From a virus (Duplodnaviria; Heunggongvirae; Uroviricota; Caudoviricetes): a DNA stretch of 25,905 bases. Below, piece after piece: positions 3,894 through 25,905 of this stretch. The stretch is taken from the IMG/VR virus record IMGVR_UViG_2711768032_000005, one strand, 5' to 3'. Under the pieces are notes generated by a model. The model worked only from the letters and a program-made list of their open reading frames with translations, had not been told where the DNA came from and did not search any database. A program made the translations under genes and the position numbers. Every line of letters starts with the position of its first letter. The first letter of the stretch is position 1.

Positions 3894-4165
3894 GTATTCG
3901 TATTGAAATTGGCGAACGTTATGTCGTTACCAGTGACAGCTTTCAGTTTATTCTCCACGAGAAAAAGAGGGCTGAAAGCGGTAAAAACGCCGGTCAGGAA
4001 TGGCTGGCGGTAGTTGGTTATTACCCGAAATTAAGCCAGCTCGTTTCCGGCATGATGCATCACGATATTCTGACCGGAAGCGCAAAGTCTTTTGCTGATT
4101 TAAACGCGCAGGTTGAGCAACTCAGCAAGCGTTGTTCAGAGGCTTTTGGCTCACATGGCCGTTAA
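3890..4165 (+). CDS. hypothetical early protein
   Basis: 91-aa ORF, GGAGAA RBS, ATGA overlap with the upstream ORF. Confidence 0.5.
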   Translation: MSIRIEIGERYVVTSDSFQFILHEKKRAESGKNAGQEWLAVVGYYPKLSQLVSGMMHHDILTGSAKSFADLNAQVEQLSKRCSEAFGSHGR

Positions 4166-6428
4166 AGCCTCCGGGCATTTTGTCCCTCCGTCAGCATTTG
4201 CCGCAGGCACCGGTAAGACGTTTACCGGTGCTTATGCATGGAACGCGCCACGCGAGGCCGTCGGGCGCGAAAGACCCCTTACACGTGACGAGATGCGTCA
4301 GGTGCAAGGTGTTTTATCCACGATTAACCGCCTGCCTTACTTTTTGCGCTCGCTGTTTACTTCACGCTATGACTACATCCGGCGCAATAAAAGCCCGGTG
4401 CACGGGTTTTATTTCCTCACATCCACTTTTCAGCGTCGTTTATGGCCGCGCATTGAGCGCGTGAATCAGCGCCATGAAATGAACACCGACGCGTCGTTGC
4501 TGTTTCTGGCAGAGCGCGACCAGTATGCGCGCCTGCCGGGGATGAATGACAAGGAGCTGAAAAAGTTTGCCGCCCGTATCTCATCACAGCTTTTCATGAT
4601 GTATGAGGAACTCTGCGATGCCTGGGTGGATGCGCATGGCGAGAAAGAATCGCTGTTTACGGATGAGGCGCAGGCTCACCTCTATGGTCATGTTGCTGGC
4701 GCTGCACGTGCTTTCAATATTTCCCCTCTCTACTGGAAAAAATACCGTAAAGGACAGATGACCACGAGGCAGGCATATTCTGCCATTGCCCGCCTGTTTA
4801 ACGATGAGTGGTGGACTCATCAGCTTAAAGGCCAGCGTATGCGCTGGCATGAGGCGTTACTGATTGCTGTCGGGGAGGTGAATAAAGACCGTTCTCCTTA
4901 TGCCAGTAAACATGCCATTCGTGATGTGCGTGCGCGCCGCCAGGCAAATCTGGAGTTTCTTAAATCGTGTGACCTTGAGAACAGGGAAACCGGCGAGCGC
5001 ATCGACCTTATCAGTAAGGTGATGGGCAGTATTTCTAATCCTGAAATTCGCCGGATGGAGCTGATGAACACCATTGCCGGTATTGAGCGTTACGCCGCCG
5101 CAGAGGGTGATGTGGGGATGTTTATCACGCTAACCGCGCCGTCAAAGTATCACCCGACACGTCAGGTCGGAAAAGGCGAAAGTAAAACCGTGCAGCTTAA
5201 TCACGGCTGGAACGATGAGGCATTTAATCCAAAGGATGCGCAGCGTTATCTCTGCCGTATCTGGAGCCTGATGCGCACGGCATTCAAGGATAATGATTTA
5301 CAGGTCTACGGTTTGCGTGTCGTCGAGCCACACCACGACGGAACGCCGCACTGGCATATGATGCTTTTTTGTAATCCACGCCAGCGTAACCAGATTATCG
5401 AAATCATGCGTCGCTACGCGCTCAAAGAGGATGGCGACGAAAGAGGAGCCGCGCGAAACCGTTTTCAGGCAAAACACCTTAACCGGGGCGGTGCTGCGGG
5501 ATATATCGCGAAATACATTTCAAAAAACATCGACGGCTATGCACTGGATGGTCAGCTCGATAACGATACCGGCAGACCGCTGAAAGACACTGCGGCGGCT
5601 GTTACCGCATGGGCGTCAACGTGGCGCATCCCGCAATTTAAAACGGTTGGACTGCCGACAATGGGGGCTTACCGTGAACTACGCAAATTGCCTCGCGGCG
5701 TCAGTATTGCTGATGAGTTTGACGAACGCGTCGAGGCTGCTCGCGCCGCCGCAGACAGTGGCGATTTTGCGCTGTATATCAGCACGCAGGGTGGGGCAAA
5801 TGTTCCGCGCGATTGTCAGACTGTCAGGGTTGCCCGTAGTCCGTCGGATGACGTTAACGAGTACGAGGAAGAAGTCGAGAGAGTGGTCGGCATTTACGCG
5901 CCGCATCTCGGCGCGCGTCATATTCATATCACCAGAACGACGGACTGGCGCATTGTGCCGAAAGTTCCGGTCGTTGAGCCTTTGACTTTAAAAAGCGGCA
6001 TCGCCGCGCCTCGGAGTCCTGTCAATAACTGTGGAAAGCTCACCGGTGGTGATACTTCGTTACCGGCTCCCACACCTTCTGAGCACGCCGCAGCCGTGCT
6101 AAATCTGGTTGATGACGGTGTTATCGAATGGAATGACCCGGAGGTCGTGAGGACGCTCAGGGGGGCATTAAAACACGGTCTGAGAAGACCAAACCGTCAG
6201 CAAAGAAACGGAAGCCCGTTAAAACCACATGAAATAGCACCGTCGGCCAGACTGACTCGGTCGGAACGATTGCAAATTACCCGTATCCGCGTTGACCTCG
6301 CTCAGAACGGTATCAGGCCGCAACGATGGGAGCTTGAGGCGCTGGCGCGTGGCGCGACCGTAAATTATGACGGGAAAAAATTCACGTATCCGATTGCTGA
6401 TGAGTGGCCGGAGTTTTCCGCAAACTAA
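4155..6428 (+). CDS. A: replication initiation protein A-like (rolling-circle nicking endonuclease)
   Basis: 757 aa from ATG 4155 (track ORF starts at TTG 4113; P2 A is about 761 aa as recalled). HUH-like HWHMMLF motif and paired tyrosines in GYIAKYISKNIDGY. Confidence 0.8.
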   Translation: MAVKASGHFVPPSAFAAGTGKTFTGAYAWNAPREAVGRERPLTRDEMRQVQGVLSTINRLPYFLRSLFTSRYDYIRRNKSPVHGFYFLTSTFQRRLWPRIERVNQRHEMNTDASLLFLAERDQYARLPGMNDKELKKFAARISSQLFMMYEELCDAWVDAHGEKESLFTDEAQAHLYGHVAGAARAFNISPLYWKKYRKGQMTTRQAYSAIARLFNDEWWTHQLKGQRMRWHEALLIAVGEVNKDRSPYASKHAIRDVRARRQANLEFLKSCDLENRETGERIDLISKVMGSISNPEIRRMELMNTIAGIERYAAAEGDVGMFITLTAPSKYHPTRQVGKGESKTVQLNHGWNDEAFNPKDAQRYLCRIWSLMRTAFKDNDLQVYGLRVVEPHHDGTPHWHMMLFCNPRQRNQIIEIMRRYALKEDGDERGAARNRFQAKHLNRGGAAGYIAKYISKNIDGYALDGQLDNDTGRPLKDTAAAVTAWASTWRIPQFKTVGLPTMGAYRELRKLPRGVSIADEFDERVEAARAAADSGDFALYISTQGGANVPRDCQTVRVARSPSDDVNEYEEEVERVVGIYAPHLGARHIHITRTTDWRIVPKVPVVEPLTLKSGIAAPRSPVNNCGKLTGGDTSLPAPTPSEHAAAVLNLVDDGVIEWNDPEVVRTLRGALKHGLRRPNRQQRNGSPLKPHEIAPSARLTRSERLQITRIRVDLAQNGIRPQRWELEALARGATVNYDGKKFTYPIADEWPEFSAN

Positions 6429-6600
6429 TAATGATGTTTGACAAAGAGTAATAAAGGGATGTTGACAAGGCTAAAATTTTTACCTGTCAGTATAGTTAGA
6501 GCAGTATAGTTCTGAGGAGTTCGAATATAACTAATGGGGCACTCTTTAATATGTGATTAACACGGTTATATTAAAATTAAATGCTCATAGGAATAAAATG

Positions 6601-6624
6601 AGGGCAAGAGGTTATTCTTGCCCT
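6601..6624. terminator. bidirectional intrinsic terminator between convergent gene A and the SIR2-like gene
   Basis: Perfect 9-bp stem AGGGCAAGA / TCTTGCCCT with 6-nt loop; U-rich tracts on both strands (TGATTTATT on plus, CATTTTATTC on minus); directly downstream of the SIR2-like stop at 6632. Confidence 0.6.
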
Positions 6625-6631
6625 TGATTTA

Positions 6632-9226
6632 TTAGGCGGCGATGTTGATGTTATTTTTATATTTTAAGAGGGCGCTTTCTGGAACTGCTGGCCAGGCTGA
6701 GTATCTATAATAGTTCATATAATCTTTCTCTATCAGTCTCTTTAACTGTTTGTTAGCCTGAACTTCATCGTCAAGTAAAAAGAATGCACACATGGATGTA
6801 GCCCCTTTTGAATTATTATGTGCTAAAACTGAATTTATCTCATTCTTTTTAATGTCTTGTCTTTGTTTTTTCTTGGCAACTTCCCTATTGATTATTAAAA
6901 CATCTTTCTCTCTGTAATCTTTGATTTTTTCAAGATTTTCATTAGTTATTTTAATTGTTTCTTTATAGTTTCCTGCAAGAAGGTTAGTATAAGATTTTCC
7001 TAAGATATAATCACTAAACCCGTAACCTTTCTCATAAGCTTCATCAAGAAGAATTATCGCTTTTTCATAATCGCCGTTTAAAGATGCAATATCAGATTTT
7101 AATTTCAAAATGGTTATTTCTGATTTATTTCTTGGCAGGCTGTCAATAAACTCCTCTGCCAATTTGATGTTGTTTTTATCAATTAGCAATATGTCTATAA
7201 TACTGTCTGTATGATTATTCTTCCACGGACAATTCATGGCTTCTTTGGCTAATTCAATGCCAGCTTTGATGTCTCTGTTGCAGCCTATCTCATATCGAGC
7301 TTTAAATATAATGAAAGGAGCAATTCTTGCAATGTCGCCCTCTTCTTCATATTTATCAATAAAGTCTTTCATCAAGCCGGGAGTGTTTTCGTCAAAGTCT
7401 GTTTCAAATAAAGATAGATGCAGTTGTGTTAAATATTTTAATATATTTCTCTTTTTATTTTTTGATGATGTTTTGTAAACGTTGGATAATTTATCTATGC
7501 ACAATAATGCCTCTTCTTTTTTTTGCAATGCGCAGGTGAAATCAGTATATAACGACAAATATGTATCGTGAGTAGGGTTAACATCTTTTATTTTATCAAG
7601 TAGTTCTTGTATTGATTTGTTACAATCTTTCTTATCATAGCTTGATTGATGTTTTGTCTTTATCGCGTCATATTTTATTCTCCATGCAATATTATCCAGA
7701 TTACTGCTTTGGAGTAAACTTTTATCAATTAAATCATGTATTTCATCAAAGGTTATTAATTCCTCATCATGATTTTCTAGATGTAGAATAGCAATTCTGC
7801 TTAAATGATTCTTAAGATTTATGCTATATGGGAATTTTTCTAGCAATCCCTTTAGGTAATGTATTTTTTCATTTAGATCTGTGAATATGTTTGTCCTTGA
7901 TAGGGCGTAATTTATATTAAATTCATCAAGAGCTATGAGTTTATCACTAATTTCTAATGCTGACTTTGTGTCTTTTTGTTCTTCTTTTATTTCAATTAGC
8001 CTACGTAGATATTTAGATTTTATATTGTCACTATCAGCGTTATTGATTAAATCATTCAGTTTTGACTCTGCGTTTGAATAATTTTTATTTCTAATGAGGT
8101 TGTCAATGTATAACAAATTCTTAAAATCTTCTTCGGGAATTTTTTGTTCGTCTAAATCACTTTGGGATAGCTCGTTTATTAATGATGATATGTCATGTGT
8201 TAGAGTGTGTTTTTTTAATTTTGAGAGGTCAGATTTGATAATGTTATTTTTAGATAAGCTGTACTCATCTGTTATAAAGTTTTGAATCATCATCTCTCTT
8301 TTTGTGGATTTTTGATTCCCTCCAAAAGAGAGTGTGCAGCCTAATTCAAGGGCTAGTTCTGCCATTAATTCATCAAAGCCTTCTATTTCTACCCAATAAA
8401 CTTTCTCTTGACCTAGAAGCCTAATTAGTTCTGGTGGGATGGCGTCATTTTGTCTTACGCACCAATATACCCCATTCCGTAGGTAATCGTCCTGTTTTAA
8501 TAAATGTTTTAAAACATCCATGATAGAGCTGTCATTGCCAGCATAACCAACAAAAATAACCCCGTATTCTTTAGTGAATTCAGTTAGTTTTTCACGAGTG
8601 TTACCTTCTAATGACTCGGTTTCTTTTAAAGAGCTTTTTATGCTATCAAATAGATAATCACCATGTAATTTTATTATTTTTGGTCTTGAAGAAGTAATTG
8701 AGACGCCTTTAATTGATGAGTCATGTGCGCATAATAATGGTCTGTCAGAAGAAAATTGATAAAATGCTTCATTTATTAAATCGTCAAAATTTGTTGTGAA
8801 GACAGTATCAAAAAACTTTGATTCAAATAGTTCAACGAGATAAGCATATCCAATTGAAGGTAATTTTTTGTCTACTTGAAGCTCAACAAATCTTCTGCGT
8901 TGAGATGGGAGATCAAATTTCTTTTCAAAAAGAGAGGAGTATTCATTGTTTGGGTCGTACCAGACTGGATGGTTTTTGGATAGCCATTTTTTAGCTTCTT
9001 CGGCATCGATATATTCTTTATTGGATAGTCTTGTGTATATCTCTTCTCTCCATGTTGCAACTAACTCTTGACCAGTTTTTATTCCTGATGTAACGGATGC
9101 ACCAGCACCAAGAAAGAGTGAATAGTTAGGTGATGTACCTGATTTGATTTTTATATAATCTGCTAAATCTTTAACTGTTCTTTTTTTGGCAACCAGTTGT
9201 TCCTTGGTAGTATCACGATCAGACAT
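6632..9226 (-). CDS. SIR2-like (sirtuin-type NADase) domain protein with long helical C-terminal region; candidate anti-phage defence effector
   Basis: 864 aa; ATG at 9226 with strong GGAGGG RBS. N-terminal 300 aa carry SIR2-type motifs FLGAGAS (37-44), TTNFD (Asn146, codon 8789-8791), KLHGD (His188, codon 8663-8665), GYAGND; Asn-His spacing of 42 is similar to ThsA and DSR2. AT-rich, unlike flanking phage genes. Confidence 0.8.
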   Translation of the reverse strand: MSDRDTTKEQLVAKKRTVKDLADYIKIKSGTSPNYSLFLGAGASVTSGIKTGQELVATWREEIYTRLSNKEYIDAEEAKKWLSKNHPVWYDPNNEYSSLFEKKFDLPSQRRRFVELQVDKKLPSIGYAYLVELFESKFFDTVFTTNFDDLINEAFYQFSSDRPLLCAHDSSIKGVSITSSRPKIIKLHGDYLFDSIKSSLKETESLEGNTREKLTEFTKEYGVIFVGYAGNDSSIMDVLKHLLKQDDYLRNGVYWCVRQNDAIPPELIRLLGQEKVYWVEIEGFDELMAELALELGCTLSFGGNQKSTKREMMIQNFITDEYSLSKNNIIKSDLSKLKKHTLTHDISSLINELSQSDLDEQKIPEEDFKNLLYIDNLIRNKNYSNAESKLNDLINNADSDNIKSKYLRRLIEIKEEQKDTKSALEISDKLIALDEFNINYALSRTNIFTDLNEKIHYLKGLLEKFPYSINLKNHLSRIAILHLENHDEELITFDEIHDLIDKSLLQSSNLDNIAWRIKYDAIKTKHQSSYDKKDCNKSIQELLDKIKDVNPTHDTYLSLYTDFTCALQKKEEALLCIDKLSNVYKTSSKNKKRNILKYLTQLHLSLFETDFDENTPGLMKDFIDKYEEEGDIARIAPFIIFKARYEIGCNRDIKAGIELAKEAMNCPWKNNHTDSIIDILLIDKNNIKLAEEFIDSLPRNKSEITILKLKSDIASLNGDYEKAIILLDEAYEKGYGFSDYILGKSYTNLLAGNYKETIKITNENLEKIKDYREKDVLIINREVAKKKQRQDIKKNEINSVLAHNNSKGATSMCAFFLLDDEVQANKQLKRLIEKDYMNYYRYSAWPAVPESALLKYKNNINIAA

Positions 9227-9531: not shown

Positions 9532-9550
9532 GGCGAGGCGGGGAAAGCAC
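9532..9550. other. cos: cos site, P2-type 19-nt cohesive end sequence
   Basis: GGCGAGGCGGGGAAAGCAC matches the P2 cohesive-end sequence as I recall it; lies between the cargo island and portal gene Q, where P2 cos is expected. Recalled, not searched. Confidence 0.6.
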
Positions 9551-9690: not shown

Positions 9691-9712
9691 AAAAAAGCCG
9701 CCCGCAGGCGGC
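9691..9712 (-). terminator. intrinsic terminator downstream of Q (minus strand)
   Basis: GC stem GCCGCC / GGCGGC with 4-nt loop, followed on the minus strand by a T6 run; begins 5 nt after the Q stop. Confidence 0.5.
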
Positions 9713-9717
9713 GATGT

Positions 9718-10752
9718 TCAGCCGTTGTCAGTGTCCAGTGAGTAGTTTTTAAAGCGGATGACCTCCTGACCGAGCCAGCCGTTTATCTCGCGGATCCTGT
9801 CCTGTAGCGGGATAAGCTCATTGCGGACAAAGACCTTTGCCACTTTCTCAATATCACCCAGCGACCCGACGTTCTCCGGCTTGCCGCCCATCAACTGAAA
9901 GGGGATGCGGTGCGCGTCCAGCAGGTCAGCGGCGCTGGCTTTTTTGATATTAAAAAAATCGTCCTTCGTTGCCACTTCACTGAGCGGGATAATTTTGATG
10001 CCGTCGGCTTTCCCCTGTGGGGCATAGAGAAACAGATTTTTAAAGTTGTTGCGGCCTTTCGACTTCACCATGTTTTCGCGGAGCATTTCGATATCGTTGC
10101 GATCCTGCACGGCATCAGTGACGTACATGATGTATCCGGCATGAGCGCCGTTTTCGTAATACTTGCGGCGGAACAGTGTGGCTGATTCATTCAGCCAGGC
10201 AGAATTAAGGGCGCTGAGATATTCCGGCAGGCCGTACAGCTCCTGATTGATATCCGGCTCCAGCAGGTGAAACACGGAGCCGGGCGTGAAGGCTGTCGGC
10301 TCGTTGAAGGACGGCACCCACCAGTAAACATCCTCCTCCACGCCACGGCGGGTATATTTTGCCGGTGAGGTTTCCAGTCTGATGACCTTACCGGTGGTGC
10401 TGTAACGCTTTTCCAGAAACGCATTACCGAACACCAGAAAATCCAGCACAAAGCGGCTGAAATCCTGTTGCGAAAGCCACGGATGCGGGATAAATGTCGA
10501 GGCCAGAATATTGCGTTTAACGTAAATCGGTGAGCTGTGATGCACGGCAGCACGCAGGCTTTTCGCCAGACCGGTAAAGCTGACCGGCGGCTCATACCAT
10601 CTGCCGTTACTGATGCACTCGACGTAATCCAGAATGTCACGGCGGTCGAGTACCGGCACCGGCTCACCAAAGGTGAAGGCCTCCATTTTCGGGGCGCTGG
10701 CGGTCATTTTTTTTGCCTCAGGTTGCGGTGTTTTCCCTTTTTTCTTGCTCAT
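9718..10752 (-). CDS. Q: portal protein Q-like
   Basis: 344 aa, same length as P2 Q as recalled; start overlaps the P stop (ATGA); opposite orientation to the O-N-M-L block as in P2. Confidence 0.9.
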   Translation of the reverse strand: MSKKKGKTPQPEAKKMTASAPKMEAFTFGEPVPVLDRRDILDYVECISNGRWYEPPVSFTGLAKSLRAAVHHSSPIYVKRNILASTFIPHPWLSQQDFSRFVLDFLVFGNAFLEKRYSTTGKVIRLETSPAKYTRRGVEEDVYWWVPSFNEPTAFTPGSVFHLLEPDINQELYGLPEYLSALNSAWLNESATLFRRKYYENGAHAGYIMYVTDAVQDRNDIEMLRENMVKSKGRNNFKNLFLYAPQGKADGIKIIPLSEVATKDDFFNIKKASAADLLDAHRIPFQLMGGKPENVGSLGDIEKVAKVFVRNELIPLQDRIREINGWLGQEVIRFKNYSLDTDNG

Positions 10753-21390: not shown

Positions 21391-23601
21391 ATGAGCACAA
21401 AATTCAGAACCGTTATCACCACTGCCGGTGCAGCAAAGCTGGCAGCGGCAACCGCACCGGGAGGGCGGAAGGTCAACATTACCACGATGGCCGTCGGGGA
21501 TGGCGGTGGTAAATTGCCTGTCCCGGATGCCGGACAGACCGGGCTTATCCATGAAGTCTGGCGACATGCGCTGAACAAAATCAGCCAGGACAAACGAAAC
21601 AGTAATTATATTATCGCAGAGCTGGTTATTCCGCCGGAGGTGGGCGGTTTCTGGATGCGTGAGCTTGGCCTGTACGATGATGCGGGAACGTTAATTGCTG
21701 TGGCGAACATGGCTGAAAGTTATAAGCCTGCCCTTGCCGAAGGCTCAGGGCGTTCGCAGACCTGCCGCATGGTCATCATCGTCAGCAGTGTGGCCTCAGT
21801 GGCGCTGACCATTGACACCACAACGGTGATGGCAACGCAGGATTACGTTGATGACAAAATTGCAGAGCACGAACAGTCACGACGTCACCCGGACGCCTCG
21901 CTGACCGCAAAAGGTTTTACTCAGCTAAGCAGCGCGACCAACAGCACGTCTGAAACACTGGCCGCAACGCCGAAAGCGGTAAAGGCCGCATATGACCTTG
22001 CTAACGGGAAATATACTGCACAGGATGCCACTACAGCGCGAAAAGGCCTTGTTCAGCTCAGTAGTGCGACTAACAGCACGTCTGAAACGCTCGCCGCAAC
22101 GCCGAAAGCGGTAAAGGCCGCATATGACCTTGCTAACGGGAAATACACTGCACAGGACGCCACCACAGCGCGAAAAGGTCTTGTCCAGCTCAGTAGCGCC
22201 ACCAACAGCGATTCTGAAACGCTTGCGGCAACGCCAAAGGCGGTAAAGGCCGCGTATGACCTTGCTAACGGGAAATACACTGCACAGGATGCCACCACGG
22301 CGCGAAAAGGGCTTGTCCAGCTCAGTAGCGCCACCAACAGTGATTCTGAAACGCTGGCCGCAACACCAAAAGCGGTGAGGTCTGCCTATGACAATGCTGA
22401 AAAACGTCTTCAGAAAGATCAGAACGGTGCGGATATTCCGGGAAAGGATACCTTCACGAAAAATATCGGTGCCTGTCGTGCTTATAGCGGCGCTTTGAGC
22501 ACTGAAGCCGGAAACTGGACAACCGCTCAGTTTATTGACTGGCTAGAGTCTCAGGGAGCCTTTAATCATCCTTACTGGATGTGCAAGTGTTCCTGGTCAT
22601 ATGGTAATAACAAAATTATTACCGATACTGACTGTGGGACTATTCATCTTGCAGGTTGCGTGATTGAGGTTATGGGCGTTAAAGCAGCAATGACCATTCG
22701 TGTGACCACTCCGAGTACATCAAGCGGTGGTGGTACCACCAGTGCGCAATTCACGTATATCAATCACGGAGCTGATTATGCGCCGGGCTGGCGACGCGAC
22801 TACAATACGAAAAATAAGCAACCGGCTTTTGCATTAGGGAAAACAGGAAATACGGTTGCAAATAATAAAGCGGTAGGATGGAACTGGGACAGTGGTGCTT
22901 ATTGTGCACAGGATGGCGGAGCATCAAAAATGGTGTTGCATTTTTACACGGGTGAGGGAAGTTGTCCGGCAATGCAGTTTCTTGTGGATTATAAAAACAG
23001 GGGGATTTTTTACAGGTCGGCACGTGATGGGTATGGATTTGAGGCTGACTGGTCAGAGTTTTATACCACATCACGAAAGCCAACACCTGCGGATATTCTT
23101 GCTCTGGCATTATCAGGCGGAAGCATGTCAGGCAGCATAAAATTTATCAATGATGCCTTCCTGATTTGGGAAAGAAACACTGACTGGGCGAAAATTGGAT
23201 TTAAAAATGATTCAGATGCTGATTCTGACTCATACATGTGGTTTGAAACTGGTGATAATGGCAATGAATATTTTAAATGGCGCATCAGGTCTGGCAGCAC
23301 AACAAAAGATCTGATGACGCTTAAGTCTGATGCACTACGGGTTACCGGGCAGGTGATACCATCAAATTTCAGCAATTTTGACTCCCGCTATGTCCGGGAT
23401 ATCCGACTTGGTGGTGCCGCCACATACAAACCTGCGAACAATGGCATGACATGGACACATCAGGCACCGTCCGGGTGTGTATATACCGGCATTATTGTTC
23501 AGGATACCGGCTCAAACTCTGCCGATAACATTGGTGGCGTATATTACAGACCGGTTCAGAAATACATTAACGGGACATGGTACAACGTGGCGCAGGTATA
23601 A
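21391..23601 (+). CDS. H: tail fibre protein H-like, with internal tandem repeats and a divergent middle segment
   Basis: 736 aa; N-terminus MSTKFRTVITTAGAAKLAAA and C-terminal tip QKYINGTWYNVAQV resemble P2 H as recalled (P2 H is shorter, about 669 aa). Confidence 0.85.
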   Translation: MSTKFRTVITTAGAAKLAAATAPGGRKVNITTMAVGDGGGKLPVPDAGQTGLIHEVWRHALNKISQDKRNSNYIIAELVIPPEVGGFWMRELGLYDDAGTLIAVANMAESYKPALAEGSGRSQTCRMVIIVSSVASVALTIDTTTVMATQDYVDDKIAEHEQSRRHPDASLTAKGFTQLSSATNSTSETLAATPKAVKAAYDLANGKYTAQDATTARKGLVQLSSATNSTSETLAATPKAVKAAYDLANGKYTAQDATTARKGLVQLSSATNSDSETLAATPKAVKAAYDLANGKYTAQDATTARKGLVQLSSATNSDSETLAATPKAVRSAYDNAEKRLQKDQNGADIPGKDTFTKNIGACRAYSGALSTEAGNWTTAQFIDWLESQGAFNHPYWMCKCSWSYGNNKIITDTDCGTIHLAGCVIEVMGVKAAMTIRVTTPSTSSGGGTTSAQFTYINHGADYAPGWRRDYNTKNKQPAFALGKTGNTVANNKAVGWNWDSGAYCAQDGGASKMVLHFYTGEGSCPAMQFLVDYKNRGIFYRSARDGYGFEADWSEFYTTSRKPTPADILALALSGGSMSGSIKFINDAFLIWERNTDWAKIGFKNDSDADSDSYMWFETGDNGNEYFKWRIRSGSTTKDLMTLKSDALRVTGQVIPSNFSNFDSRYVRDIRLGGAATYKPANNGMTWTHQAPSGCVYTGIIVQDTGSNSADNIGGVYYRPVQKYINGTWYNVAQV
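21910..22396 (+). repeat. four tandem 132-bp (44-aa) in-frame repeats inside the tail fibre gene
   Basis: Units start at 21910, 22042, 22174, 22306. Protein unit KGLVQLSSATNS(T/D)SETLAATPKAVKAAYDLANGKYTAQDATTAR; by eye copies 2 and 3 differ at about 13 of 132 nt, mostly synonymous; the fourth copy diverges in its last third. Confidence 0.85.
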
Positions 23602-23699: not shown

Positions 23700-24352
23700 T
23701 CACTGATCTCCTTCGGTCAACGGAGATTGTATTTTCCGCATTGATTCTCCTTTAAGTTCGATCTTGATACTGCCATGAACCAGTCGATCTAGGATGGCAT
23801 CCGCATGTGTGGAGTCTCCGATCATTTTGTACCAGTTTTCCACCGGCAACTGGCTCACTACGATGATTGAGCCTCGTTGGTACATCAGATCCACTATTTC
23901 CAGCAGGTCGCTACATGCCCCTGATAGCACTGTTCCATCAGCGCTTTAAGGCGATAATAGTAGACCTTGTATCCCTGTCGGCAGGCATTATGACCAAGTG
24001 CACATGCCAGGAACGTTTTACCGCTGCCGGTGGCCCCGGTCAGTAAAATATTTTGTTTCAGGGTTAACCAGTTTCCCTGACTGAGTGAACGGATGAGGGC
24101 CCTGTCCAGCCCTCTATTGTTACGATAATCCAGCTTTGATAACTCAGCATTAAGTCTGAACCGTGCATGTTTGATCAGACGCTCTGCCTTCCTGTTTTCA
24201 CGGCAGGTTAGTTCTTCTGCTGTCAGTAATGACAGGCGTTCTTCGAAGCCCAGCTCCTGGTATGTGCCCGGTTGAGCAAGTTGCTTTTTAAGCGCATCAC
24301 GGAAGCCGGTGAGTTTAAGTGCGGTCAGTTGTTCGTAAAGATGATTCATCAT
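23700..24352 (-). pseudogene. istB: istB (IS21 helper ATPase), disrupted
   Basis: Two fragments in different frames (23894..24352 with Walker A; 23700..23930 with C-terminal RGSIIVVSQLP...ILDRLVHGS...KGESMR). Frames overlap around 23930-23945 and the segment expected to hold Walker B (hhhhDE) appears missing. Confidence 0.65.
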
Positions 24353-24363
24353 TGGATCCCGTA

Positions 24364-25905
24364 TCAGTGGTAATACTCACTGCCGCGTACGTTTTCGTGT
24401 TCCATCGTGGATAACAGATCTGGTTTTGGATCCTGAACAGGTTGTTTATCCAGACCTTTTTCCAGGATCGATTTAATACCTGACAGACGCCATACCTTTG
24501 TTTTCAGAGCTCTTGCACATGCTGCATTAAGTCTGGCTTTACTGTATTTTTTATGAAGGTTCAGGAGTCCAAGGCAGAAGCGATAGCTTTGTTCCGGATG
24601 TGGACGAGAGTTCAGTATATGAAGCACATAACTATGAGTTTCACTGCCTATGTGCCCCGCCCATTCCAGAAGACGCTCTGGCGTCCAGGTGGCATGCTGT
24701 CGATGAGCTTCAGGCATGTGCTCGTTGCGGGTACTGTAGCCATAAGTACGCTTGCGCGGGTGCACAGCAACCTCCTGCCCCTGATTGAAGAGTCTTACCA
24801 GTTCTCCGGAGATCCATGCTTCCAGTTGCTGGCCTAACAGCGAACATGGAACCGAGTAGTAATGTTTGTCGATTTCCACGTGGTAATCGGCATGAACTCT
24901 GACTTTCTTCACCAGGGTGTAACTGTAACTGGCTTCAGGAAGAGGCTTCAGTGCGGGTTTATCAAGCTGGATGAAGAGTTCTGCACGTGAATAACCCAAC
25001 TTCTGCATTATTTTGTTATTCAGTCTTTCCAGCAACTCCCGAATGCGCTGATTAAGCGATGCAAGGCTGTAGAAGATCTCATGCCTGATTCGGGCCATGA
25101 TCCAGCGTTCAACAACCTGAACGCCAACTTCAGCTTTGGCTTTATCTTTCGGTTTACGTGGCCGCGCAGGCAAAACTGCGACATTATAATGCTCAAGCAT
25201 CTGCTGGTAGGTAGGGTTAACGTCAGGATCATACTTACATGCCCTGGATGTGGCGCTTTTCAGATTGTCCGGAACAACAAGTTCAGGAACGCCACCCAAC
25301 CACTGGAAGCAGCGAACATGACTCATCACCCAGTCTTCAAGCTGCTGAGACCAGGTGGCCTCTGCCCATGTGTAACTTGATGCCCCGAGAACAGCTACGA
25401 TGACCTGAGCAGTTCTTATTTCTCCGGTCTCAGGGTCGGTAACGCCAACGGTAGGTCCACAGTAATCAACGAAAAGTTTTTCGCCAGCTTTATGTACCTG
25501 ACGCATTGATGGTGAAGTGGTTTTGAGCCATTCACGGTACATCCGGCAGTAATGGTTATAGCTGTAAAAACCGCCTGGATTACGCTCACAGTATTCTTCC
25601 CAGAGTAGCTGCAGCGTCACGCATTTATTACGCAGTTCCCGGTGTACTGTAGCCCAGTCAGGCAGAGAGTGCTTCTTCATCTTAACCTGGGTCTGAAGGA
25701 ACGCATGTTTTAGTTTTGTATCATCCCATCCTGTAGGTAAGGGCCACTGCTTTATGCCAAGTTGAGCCGCCCGATTAGCATATCTGGATACAACGGAAGG
25801 GGAGATTGCAAGACTACGACCAATTTGTCGATGGCTGAGTCCAACACCGTATTTAAGCCTAAGAATTTCTTTAAGTTTTCTCATAGAAATTGGAACTGTT
25901 GGCAT
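24364..25905 (-). CDS. istA: IS21-family transposase IstA
   Basis: 513-aa ORF; N-terminal HTH (LSHRQIGRSLAISPSVVSRY); directly upstream of istB. ATG lies at the last three bases of the window, so the true start could be further upstream. Confidence 0.8.
   Translation of the reverse strand: MPTVPISMRKLKEILRLKYGVGLSHRQIGRSLAISPSVVSRYANRAAQLGIKQWPLPTGWDDTKLKHAFLQTQVKMKKHSLPDWATVHRELRNKCVTLQLLWEEYCERNPGGFYSYNHYCRMYREWLKTTSPSMRQVHKAGEKLFVDYCGPTVGVTDPETGEIRTAQVIVAVLGASSYTWAEATWSQQLEDWVMSHVRCFQWLGGVPELVVPDNLKSATSRACKYDPDVNPTYQQMLEHYNVAVLPARPRKPKDKAKAEVGVQVVERWIMARIRHEIFYSLASLNQRIRELLERLNNKIMQKLGYSRAELFIQLDKPALKPLPEASYSYTLVKKVRVHADYHVEIDKHYYSVPCSLLGQQLEAWISGELVRLFNQGQEVAVHPRKRTYGYSTRNEHMPEAHRQHATWTPERLLEWAGHIGSETHSYVLHILNSRPHPEQSYRFCLGLLNLHKKYSKARLNAACARALKTKVWRLSGIKSILEKGLDKQPVQDPKPDLLSTMEHENVRGSEYYH

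Follow-up and report, generated by a model that had tools for sequence, protein, structure and literature searches.

An Argonaute-associated SIR2 domain joined to a predicted TPR-type solenoid in the cos-proximal hotspot of a P2-like prophage: a candidate phage-sensing module

The SIR2-TPR gene and its locus

The virus record IMGVR_UViG_2711768032_000005, a stretch of 25,905 nucleotides which is referred to here in its entirety as the window, is a P2-like prophage. Between its genes for the replication endonuclease gpA and for gpQ, the portal protein, lies a single gene, the SIR2-TPR gene, whose product consists of an N-terminal SIR2 domain, a short linker and a C-terminal region predicted to fold as a solenoid of tetratricopeptide repeats (TPRs). 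By analogy with characterised SIR2 defence proteins, this C-terminal region is probably a module of a single-gene anti-phage protein that the prophage carries as cargo in its gpA/gpQ hotspot. The coordinates of the features discussed below are collected in Table 1.

A first-pass annotation of the window, made from its letters alone, had assigned positions 6635-8326 (minus strand) to the C-terminal region of a SIR2 protein, and translation indeed places them at residues 301-864 (564 amino acids, aa) of an intact open reading frame (ORF) of 864 aa. Its description of this region as rich in Lys, Glu, Asn and Leu is roughly right, as these four residues make up 41% of it compared with 32% of the N-terminal 300 aa, but Ile outnumbers Glu (K 12.1, L 11.9, I 10.8, N 9.0, D 8.3 and E 7.8%). 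The bias toward K, L, I and N fits the low GC content of the gene (30-33%, vs. 53-58% in the flanks). Nevertheless, the C-terminal region is not a chance AT-rich ORF, since about 225 clusters at 50% identity have kept it and purifying selection acts on it (omega 0.12-0.15). In RefSeq, the gene of a 98.8% identical E. coli locus is named 'SIR2 family protein' and stands alone between the replication endonuclease and portal genes, and the identical protein is found on 76 E. coli contigs. The PHROGs family phrog_14359 spans the whole protein under the label 'unknown function'.

The SIR2-TPR gene occupies a GC island of about 30% by itself, the GC content falling from 53% to about 31% past gpA. 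An exact match to the 19-nt sequence GGCGAGGCGGGGAAAGCAC, which we take to be the P2 cohesive end (cos), lies in the interval from the SIR2-TPR gene to gpQ, 306 nt upstream of the former's start codon, and this nearby match is the reason for assigning the gene to the cos-proximal hotspot. Terminator-like hairpins, one after gpQ and one where the 3′ ends of gpA and the SIR2-TPR gene converge, suggest that the gene is probably its own transcription unit. The cos-proximal gpA/gpQ locus is a P2 defence hotspot, which holds old and tin in P2 itself, and part of its content is non-defensive, including partition systems and toxins (Rousset et al. 2022, PMC9122126). The hotspot flanks match 2115 of 5426 complete E. 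coli genomes, and at least 80% of the gene-spanning query is matched in 19 genomes only. Lying between gpA and gpQ, beside cos, in a place of variable content within conserved flanks, the gene has the position of P2 hotspot cargo.

Table 1. Features of the SIR2-TPR gene and its surroundings in the window (residue numbers refer to the SIR2-TPR protein)
Feature	Position	Strand	Basis and remarks
SIR2-TPR gene	6632-9226	-	ORF list; complete, 864 aa + stop; sole gene in the hotspot
SIR2 domain, residues 1-295	8342-9226	-	Pfam, PADLOC, PDB, Foldseek; coordinates checked by translation
GAGAS Rossmann motif, residues 40-44	9095-9109	-	Translation
N146	8789-8791	-	Translation
D148	8783-8785	-	Translation
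H188 (of H188-G189)	8663-8665	-	Translation
Linker, residues 296-364	8135-8341	-	Two predicted helices and an acidic loop; pLDDT 39-69 in both models
TPR-like superhelix, residues 365-856	6659-8134	-	AlphaFold2: 28 predicted helices, ~14 helix-turn-helix repeats
Repeat 2, residues 400-437, DNIKSKYLRRLIEIKEEQKDTKSALEISDKLIALDEFN	7916-8029	-	Clearest canonical TPR signature; translation checked
Repeat 10, residues 703-736, EITILKLKSDIASLNGDYEKAIILLDEAYEKGYG	7019-7120	-	Canonical TPR; holds most of GDYEKAIILLDEAYEKGYGF; translation checked
P2 gpA replication endonuclease	4113-6428	+	ORF, RefSeq name; left border of the hotspot
P2 gpQ portal protein	9718-10752	-	ORF, RefSeq 'phage portal protein'; right border of the hotspot
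Terminator-like hairpin after gpQ	9697-9712	-	Terminator scan
Bidirectional terminator-like hairpin between the convergent gpA and SIR2-TPR 3′ ends	6599-6626	both	Terminator scan
Presumed P2 cos site	9532-9550	+	Exact 19-nt match to GGCGAGGCGGGGAAAGCAC; 0/100 shuffles match

Fold of the C-terminal region

The structure of the SIR2-TPR protein was predicted by AlphaFold2 from a 34-sequence family alignment. In both the full-length model and a model of the C-terminal region alone, the helices between residues 365 and 856 have a predicted local distance difference test score (pLDDT) of about 90, and the C-terminal-only model reaches a mean pLDDT of 86.4 and a predicted template modelling score (pTM) of 0.78. 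The recurring helix-like segments that the first-pass annotation had pointed out thus reappear as the 28 predicted helices of this array. However, the helical module of about 560 aa proposed there has to be divided, as the repeat array itself covers about 490 aa and residues 296-364 form a separate linker of lower confidence. The linker motifs QKSTKRE, DISSLINELS and KIPEEDF are near-invariant in Enterobacterales and are not kept family-wide, and the linker may be a lineage-specific interface between the SIR2 domain and the TPR array.

The listed fold matches of the C-terminal model are helical without exception, and most by far are repeat proteins of the TPR or a TPR-like type. Foldseek searches with the full model matched the tail to subunits of APC/C, Ski3, Ctr9, OGT and SPINDLY, while a search against the BFVD viral models gave weak generic TPR/Sel1 matches from giant viruses only. 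No enzymatic domain was detected in the C-terminal region, in keeping with the earlier observation that it has no recognisable enzymatic motif; an enzymatic fold in place of a repeat scaffold would have contradicted that annotation, and the predicted structure is a TPR-type scaffold in which no such fold is seen.

The TPR assignment also has a sequence basis, which becomes visible when a family profile is used instead of a single sequence. Compared with the PDB by sequence, the C-terminal region alone returned noise only (calmodulin, E ~0.1), and in the window protein the Pfam models TPR_14, TPR_12 and ANAPC3 match weakly at residues 685-760, below the curated cut-offs. In contrast, the family profile matches consensus TPR designs with E 2.8e-10 at residues ~407-440, its positions 112-144 (repeat 2) aligning to each of the four CTPR-rv4 repeats. 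Among 56 diverse relatives, TPR_14, TPR_19 and TPR_2 are significant in 11, 9 and 5, respectively; SIR2_2 is found in all 56, and the sole other non-TPR match is Coatomer_E in one member. The segment GDYEKAIILLDEAYEKGYGF quoted in the first-pass annotation (residues 718-737) corresponds to helix B of repeat 10, with its signature 'GDY..AI..L..A'. In the window protein, sequence reveals a TPR in repeats 2 and 10 only, and a comparison of the four quarters of the array by hhalign found a resemblance between residues ~380-430 (repeats 1-2) and ~684-730 (repeats 9-10) at a marginal E of 0.0015 and nothing else. The repeats are therefore too divergent to be counted by sequence, and the repeat number is that of the predicted structure. 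Both hallmarks of the TPR superfamily, i.e., tandem helix-turn-helix repeats of ~34 aa arranged in a superhelix and a signature detectable by profile, are present, and the C-terminal module, as modelled, is a TPR-type solenoid of ~14 repeats and ~490 aa without an enzymatic fold, set behind a distinct linker.

The fold matches of the C-terminal model included ligand-sensing proteins, namely the phage phi105 Rap protein with its peptide, MalT domain III, NprR and PlcR. One could accordingly imagine a peptide receptor of the RRNPP/AimR type, in which the TPR array senses a short peptide encoded by a phage or another element rather than a folded protein. This we regard as extremely improbable, as the similarity of TPR folds is generic (APC3, TTC7B and Prp6 score alike), no small peptide gene is conserved beside the SIR2-TPR gene, and RRNPP receptors have 5-9 repeats, not ~14.

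The SIR2 domain

The N-terminal domain is related to the SIR2 proteins associated with Argonautes. Pfam SIR2_2 matches residues 141-261 (E 3.6e-15), and the best PADLOC matches are the Argonaute-associated SIR2 profiles (Aga_SIR2; E 1e-58, residues 33-293), further Ago-SIR2 profiles of PADLOC extending to residues 346-394. The PADLOC matches are confined to the SIR2 part of the protein, and PADLOC returned no dedicated model for the SIR2-TPR family. Among solved structures, sequence comparison detects no relatives other than the Sir2 subunits of SPARSA (PDB 8jkz and 8in8; residues 33-291, E 1e-22), the alignment pairing TTNFDD/KLHGDY with TTNFDD/KIHGDF, and Foldseek agrees on SPARSA for this domain (8jl0_A, E 2.6e-8).

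Residues G40, G42, S44, N146, D148 and H188-G189 are invariant across 77 diverse family members. The equivalents of the Asn and His are needed for defence by DSR2 (bioRxiv 10.1101/2021.12.14.472415), and those of the Asn and Asp are needed for Avs5 (PMC12931631); the equivalence of N146 and H188 to DSR2 N133 and H171 follows from motif position, without a direct alignment. Since its invariant catalytic residues match those required in DSR2 and Avs5, the SIR2 effector looks catalytically competent as far as its sequence goes, and by analogy its expected activity would be NAD+ hydrolysis.

Relatives of the C-terminal region and their genomic contexts

A word-indexed search with the tail returned 53 clusters, in which all members with a named source are from Enterobacterales and the full-length ones are ~861-886 aa long and carry the SIR2 domain. 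An exhaustive profile search with the tail extended this set to 225 representatives at 50% identity, and, among the matches listed, nearly all tail-carrying representatives are 840-930 aa long with the match starting near residue 300. Nine shorter matches were scanned, five of which start inside a truncated SIR2 domain, and the other four have no N-terminal domain of any other kind. An alternative N-terminal effector on this tail was looked for in vain in the 225-cluster search and the nine shorter matches; the tail is always fused to this SIR2 domain and is not seen on another effector. Within Enterobacterales the length of the protein is nearly fixed (864 aa in most clusters, 861-886 aa overall) despite tail identities down to 38%, and the few indels are located in the loop after the helix 589-608, so that the number of TPR repeats seems to be tightly constrained. 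The tail of a Pectobacterium allele is 38% identical to that of the E. coli protein, and Klebsiella P0054 is 43% identical to the latter over the full length. In the literature searched, no account of the family, experimental or otherwise, was found.

The same SIR2 clade occurs with other tails. In a Vibrio prophage it forms part of a 612-aa architecture, with a SIR2 domain 49% identical to that of the window protein and a tail without similarity; in the Haloferax virus Halfgib1, a pleolipovirus, a SIR2 domain 34% identical is followed by a short canonical TPR tail; and in SPARSA the clade is partnered with APAZ and a prokaryotic Argonaute (pAgo). Sensor-effector immune proteins are usually laid out in this way, a conserved effector being combined with non-enzymatic partners that can be exchanged.

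A scan of representative genomes returned three loci only. As for the relatives whose surroundings were inspected, a Serratia homologue, whose tail is 49% identical, occupies the same portal/gpA slot of a P2-like prophage, Pectobacterium homologues lie beside a P4-like satellite integrase and upstream of Ogr/Delta and alpha-primase genes, and in Xenorhabdus the neighbourhood of a homologue includes an integrase of P4 type and a primase-like gene. The Bacteroides lineage is found beside EcoRII restriction-modification genes, Vsr and an integrase, and distant metagenomic members stand alone and lack a conserved partner gene, and one adjoins a PhD/PIN toxin-antitoxin pair. These surroundings indicate that the SIR2-TPR gene travels alone, often in defence-rich mobile contexts.

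A function outside defence has to be weighed at this point. The SIR2 domain might be a protein ADP-ribosyltransferase or deacylase to which the TPR array recruits substrates, the prophage thereby modifying host physiology (lysogenic conversion). Some sirtuins do ADP-ribosylate proteins (PMC9503650), the P2 hotspot also holds partition systems and toxins (PMC9122126), and TPR domains are common substrate adaptors, e.g., in OGT and SPINDLY, which are both among the fold matches. However, the domain is of the SIR2_2 type and closest to the SPARSA NADase, the SIR2 domains of four different defence architectures all deplete NAD+ (bioRxiv 10.1101/2021.12.14.472415), and the family also resides in hotspots of P4 satellites and next to genes for restriction-modification and toxin-antitoxin systems, which makes a role in lysogenic conversion highly unlikely.

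Evolutionary rates of the two parts

Mean column entropies in Enterobacterales are 0.45 bit for the SIR2 domain (residues 33-293), 0.97 bit for the linker and 1.38 bit for the TPR array, and the family-wide values are 1.40, 2.85 and 2.97 bit, respectively. Nei-Gojobori estimates of dN/dS (omega) against four E. coli alleles, quoted where dS is unsaturated, are 0.05-0.09 for the SIR2 domain and 0.12-0.15 for the TPR part, with dN in the TPR part 2.5-3.5 times that in the SIR2 domain. The Bacteroides homologue is 49% identical in its SIR2 domain and 22% identical in its tail. The purifying selection on the tail shows that it is functional and constrained, and it is changing faster than the SIR2 effector. 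Diversifying selection was considered for the TPR part and set aside in view of its domain-wide omega, so that only a faster amino-acid rate is claimed. In TPR proteins generally, the A helices line the inner groove, and among close relatives the helices assigned as A are less variable than those assigned as B (1.17 vs. 1.56 bit), which is a weak hint.

These rates bear on two further explanations of the TPR array. In the first, the solenoid would be mainly a scaffold for oligomerisation or autoinhibition that builds a resting assembly, and the trigger would be perceived elsewhere, by the SIR2 domain or the linker, in the form of a small molecule, an altered nucleotide or NAD pool, or a nucleic acid. 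The best fold matches include the assembly scaffolds APC3, Cdc16, IFT-A, TTC7B and Prp6, the MID-CTD chains of DSR2 also intertwine into a tetramer (PMC11850899), the near-fixed length of ~864 aa with few indels across Enterobacterales suggests a tight architectural constraint, and domain-wide positive selection is absent. We nonetheless consider this explanation unlikely, as the tail evolves fast and is replaced by other tails on the same SIR2 clade, which one would expect if the tail were a specificity module and not a generic scaffold, and no other candidate sensor domain was found in the protein or the locus.

In the second, a guard model, the TPR array would bind a protein of the host or of its own prophage and fire when an invader modifies, sequesters or degrades this partner, the sensing thus being indirect. 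However, the tail is only 22-40% identical between genera, compared with 50-80% for the SIR2 domain, a divergence which exceeds that expected for binding to a conserved host partner, and the family moves between Enterobacterales, the Bacteroides lineage and metagenomic lineages. A guarded partner therefore appears distinctly unlikely.

Comparison with known systems

By analogy, the SIR2-TPR protein would work most like DSR2 and Avs5, although it is a member of neither. Like DSR2, it is a single chain in which an N-terminal SIR2 domain of NADase type, with catalytic Asn and His, precedes a long alpha-solenoid that is not enzymatic, and Foldseek aligns the two proteins end to end with E ~4e-6. 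In DSR2 of Bacillus subtilis, the C-terminal alpha-solenoid repeats capture the phage tail tube protein, which activates SIR2 (PMC11850899). However, phmmer against the PDB retrieved no DSR2 chain at E<=1, no DSR family was matched in PADLOC at E<=1, and DSR2 is absent from the top 60 fold matches of the C-terminal model. The tail of DSR2 is HEAT-like with a MID domain, whereas that of the SIR2-TPR protein is of the TPR type and its SIR2 domain is Argonaute-associated.

Avs5 shares the combination of an N-terminal Sir2 NADase with C-terminal TPR-type repeats (here SIR2 at residues 1-295 and TPR at 365-856). Its C-terminal TPR, Sel1 or PPR repeats are the proposed sensing domain, and the phage protein JADA activates its Sir2 NADase (PMC12931631). 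In contrast to the SIR2-TPR protein, Avs5 contains a STAND NTPase (nSTAND3) at its centre, a class of enzyme that acts by nucleotide-dependent oligomerisation. No NTPase domain was found in the SIR2-TPR protein by Pfam, NCBIfam, PADLOC or fold, nor in any of the 56 relatives, and only ~70 residues, predicted to form two helices, lie between the SIR2 domain and the TPR repeats. A further difference from Avs5 is that the canonical HG motif is kept in the SIR2-TPR protein.

The closest solved or profiled SIR2 relative is SPARSA (SIR2-APAZ; PDB 8jkz, 8in8 and 8y80), a SIR2-based defence system that depletes NAD+ (bioRxiv 10.1101/2021.12.14.472415), whose target-bound form has been solved as a tetramer according to the PDB entry titles. 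However, the C-terminal half of the SPARSA protein is APAZ, which pairs with a separate short Argonaute and senses nucleic acid, whereas the hotspot of the SIR2-TPR locus holds one gene and no pAgo gene, and the C-terminal part of the SIR2-TPR protein is TPR, not APAZ.

The proteins of Halfgib1 (QRG24194.1) and of Vibrio phage 10N.286.45.B12_PE001 share the SIR2 clade (34% and 49% identity over ~280 aa), a helical or TPR tail, and carriage by a temperate virus near an integrase, but their tails are shorter (~270 and ~320 aa) and without detectable similarity to that of the SIR2-TPR protein, and both are uncharacterised. Thoeris ThsA, in which SIR2 is joined to the signal-binding SLOG domain and which has the TIR protein ThsB as its partner, does not fit, as the SIR2-TPR protein has no SLOG or TIR match and no partner gene. 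With other cargo of the P2 hotspot (old, tin and the systems of Rousset et al. 2022), the gene shares the slot by cos, the character of a low-GC moron and a single autonomous transcription unit, but the family is not among the systems that Rousset et al. 2022 reported as validated. The SIR2 systems already tested from mobile elements of E. coli are different proteins, namely Rousset's pFR88 SIR2 from the P4 hotspot, which has an unrelated N-terminal sequence, and Vassallo's PD-T7-2, which consists of SIR2 and an ATPase.

Proposed function of the TPR solenoid

Being a TPR-type solenoid without an enzyme fold, the C-terminal module most plausibly acts as the switch that binds a ligand in an anti-phage system of one gene that works by NAD depletion. 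In an uninfected lysogen, the SIR2 domain would be kept inactive by the TPR solenoid. Upon infection by a competing phage, a protein or peptide segment made by that phage, most likely a phage protein, would bind the TPR superhelix, and binding would cause a conformational change, probably oligomerisation of the SIR2 domains, that switches on NAD+ hydrolysis. The resulting NAD+ depletion would arrest the cell and abort the infection. The NADase activity, the defence, the direct binding of a phage ligand by the TPR array and the oligomerisation-driven activation are all inferred by analogy with DSR2, Avs5 and SPARSA. The fold, the genomic context, the modularity and the evolutionary rates are consistent with a phage sensor, a reading that is plausible and partly supported.

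Several points weigh against a phage sensor. NADase activity, defence and ligand binding are proposed by analogy, and, as no DSR2 sequence relationship is detectable, DSR2 is an analogue in architecture only. Scaffolds for oligomerisation or assembly are also built from TPR arrays, and APC/C and IFT-A are among the best fold matches, so that the fold by itself does not say 'sensor'. The full-length model has a pTM of 0.59 and a SIR2 pLDDT of 40-80, which makes the relative orientation of the SIR2 domain and the TPR array unreliable and autoinhibition a conjecture. Moreover, the TPR region shows no domain-wide positive selection (omega far below 1), which a sensor engaged in an arms race might show, and several homologues are frameshifted, which fits a costly gene and equally fits decay.

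A more specific version of the phage-sensor reading is offered tentatively. The SIR2-TPR protein could be a STAND-less single-chain pattern-recognition receptor, in which an Argonaute-type SIR2 NADase has been rewired: in place of the nucleic-acid-guided sensing of APAZ/pAgo, a TPR superhelix of 14 repeats would sense protein directly, and oligomerisation would proceed without an NTPase as its driver. The family would then be traded between helper P2 and satellite P4, and may arbitrate competition among these elements and with unrelated phages.

Taken together, the structural guess of the first-pass annotation was confirmed and its domain boundaries were sharpened, while the function is proposed from architectural analogy. 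Were the TPR array a sensor, it would be a compact, NTPase-free means of coupling protein recognition to NAD+ depletion, and the family would stand between DSR2, with its HEAT-like solenoid, and Avs5, with its STAND and TPR domains; a sensor of an entirely different type would then be able to drive the SIR2 module of short Argonautes. The hotspot that harbours the family is among the best validated for defence in E. coli, and the family consists of one 2.6-kb gene, with natural alleles that are 38-99% identical in the tail. A trigger, if found, would join the short list of known activators of bacterial immune receptors.

Frameshifted homologues and further observations

The Bacteroides homologue (L014:7100-7260; also L013, L015 and L016) is very widespread and is interrupted exactly at the A8 tract GAAGAAGAAAAAAAACTTTAA. 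Its 379-aa SIR2 ORF (P0292) is identical on >950 contigs, and the downstream 440-aa TPR-like ORF, in the other frame, is open back to the A8 tract. The interruption could reflect a fixed pseudogene, phase variation or slippage-dependent expression. The Providencia rettgeri homologue (L017:6090-6145), which is 82% identical and adjoins a type I restriction-modification S subunit, DUF4268 and an integrase, is frameshifted by 1 nt within a run of A at residue 362. This split and the truncated clusters P0047-P0050 suggest that a costly gene is frequently inactivated. Both the Bacteroides pair (379 + 440 aa) and the Providencia pair (380 + 488 aa) were considered as two-gene versions of the system and rejected, since in each case a single frameshift in an A-run of a fused gene accounts for the two ORFs; as frameshifts, the pairs do not demonstrate a tail acting in trans. 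The window gene has three A7-A8 runs of its own, at gene positions 40, 1011 and 1703 (codons 14, 337 and 568), of the same tract type as those at which the Bacteroides and Providencia homologues are frameshifted, and the window copy is intact.

The homologue of Pectobacterium carotovorum DSM 30168 (L005:7120-9711) contains two frame changes and lies beside a broken P4-type integrase. Residues 28-607 are 57% identical to the window protein and the last ~250 aa are 33% identical, so that its distal TPR repeats may be mosaic, or the gene may be a decaying copy.

At the other end of the window, an IS21-family element (23894-25905, minus strand) lies directly downstream of the P2 tail-fibre gene (21391-23601) and coincides with a GC drop at 22.5-24.5 kb. 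It comprises an IstA-like transposase (24364-25905) with rve and Mu-transposase C domains and a shortened IstB (23894-24352, 152 aa) whose match covers positions 2-135 of the 238 in its profile. The prophage is possibly defective.

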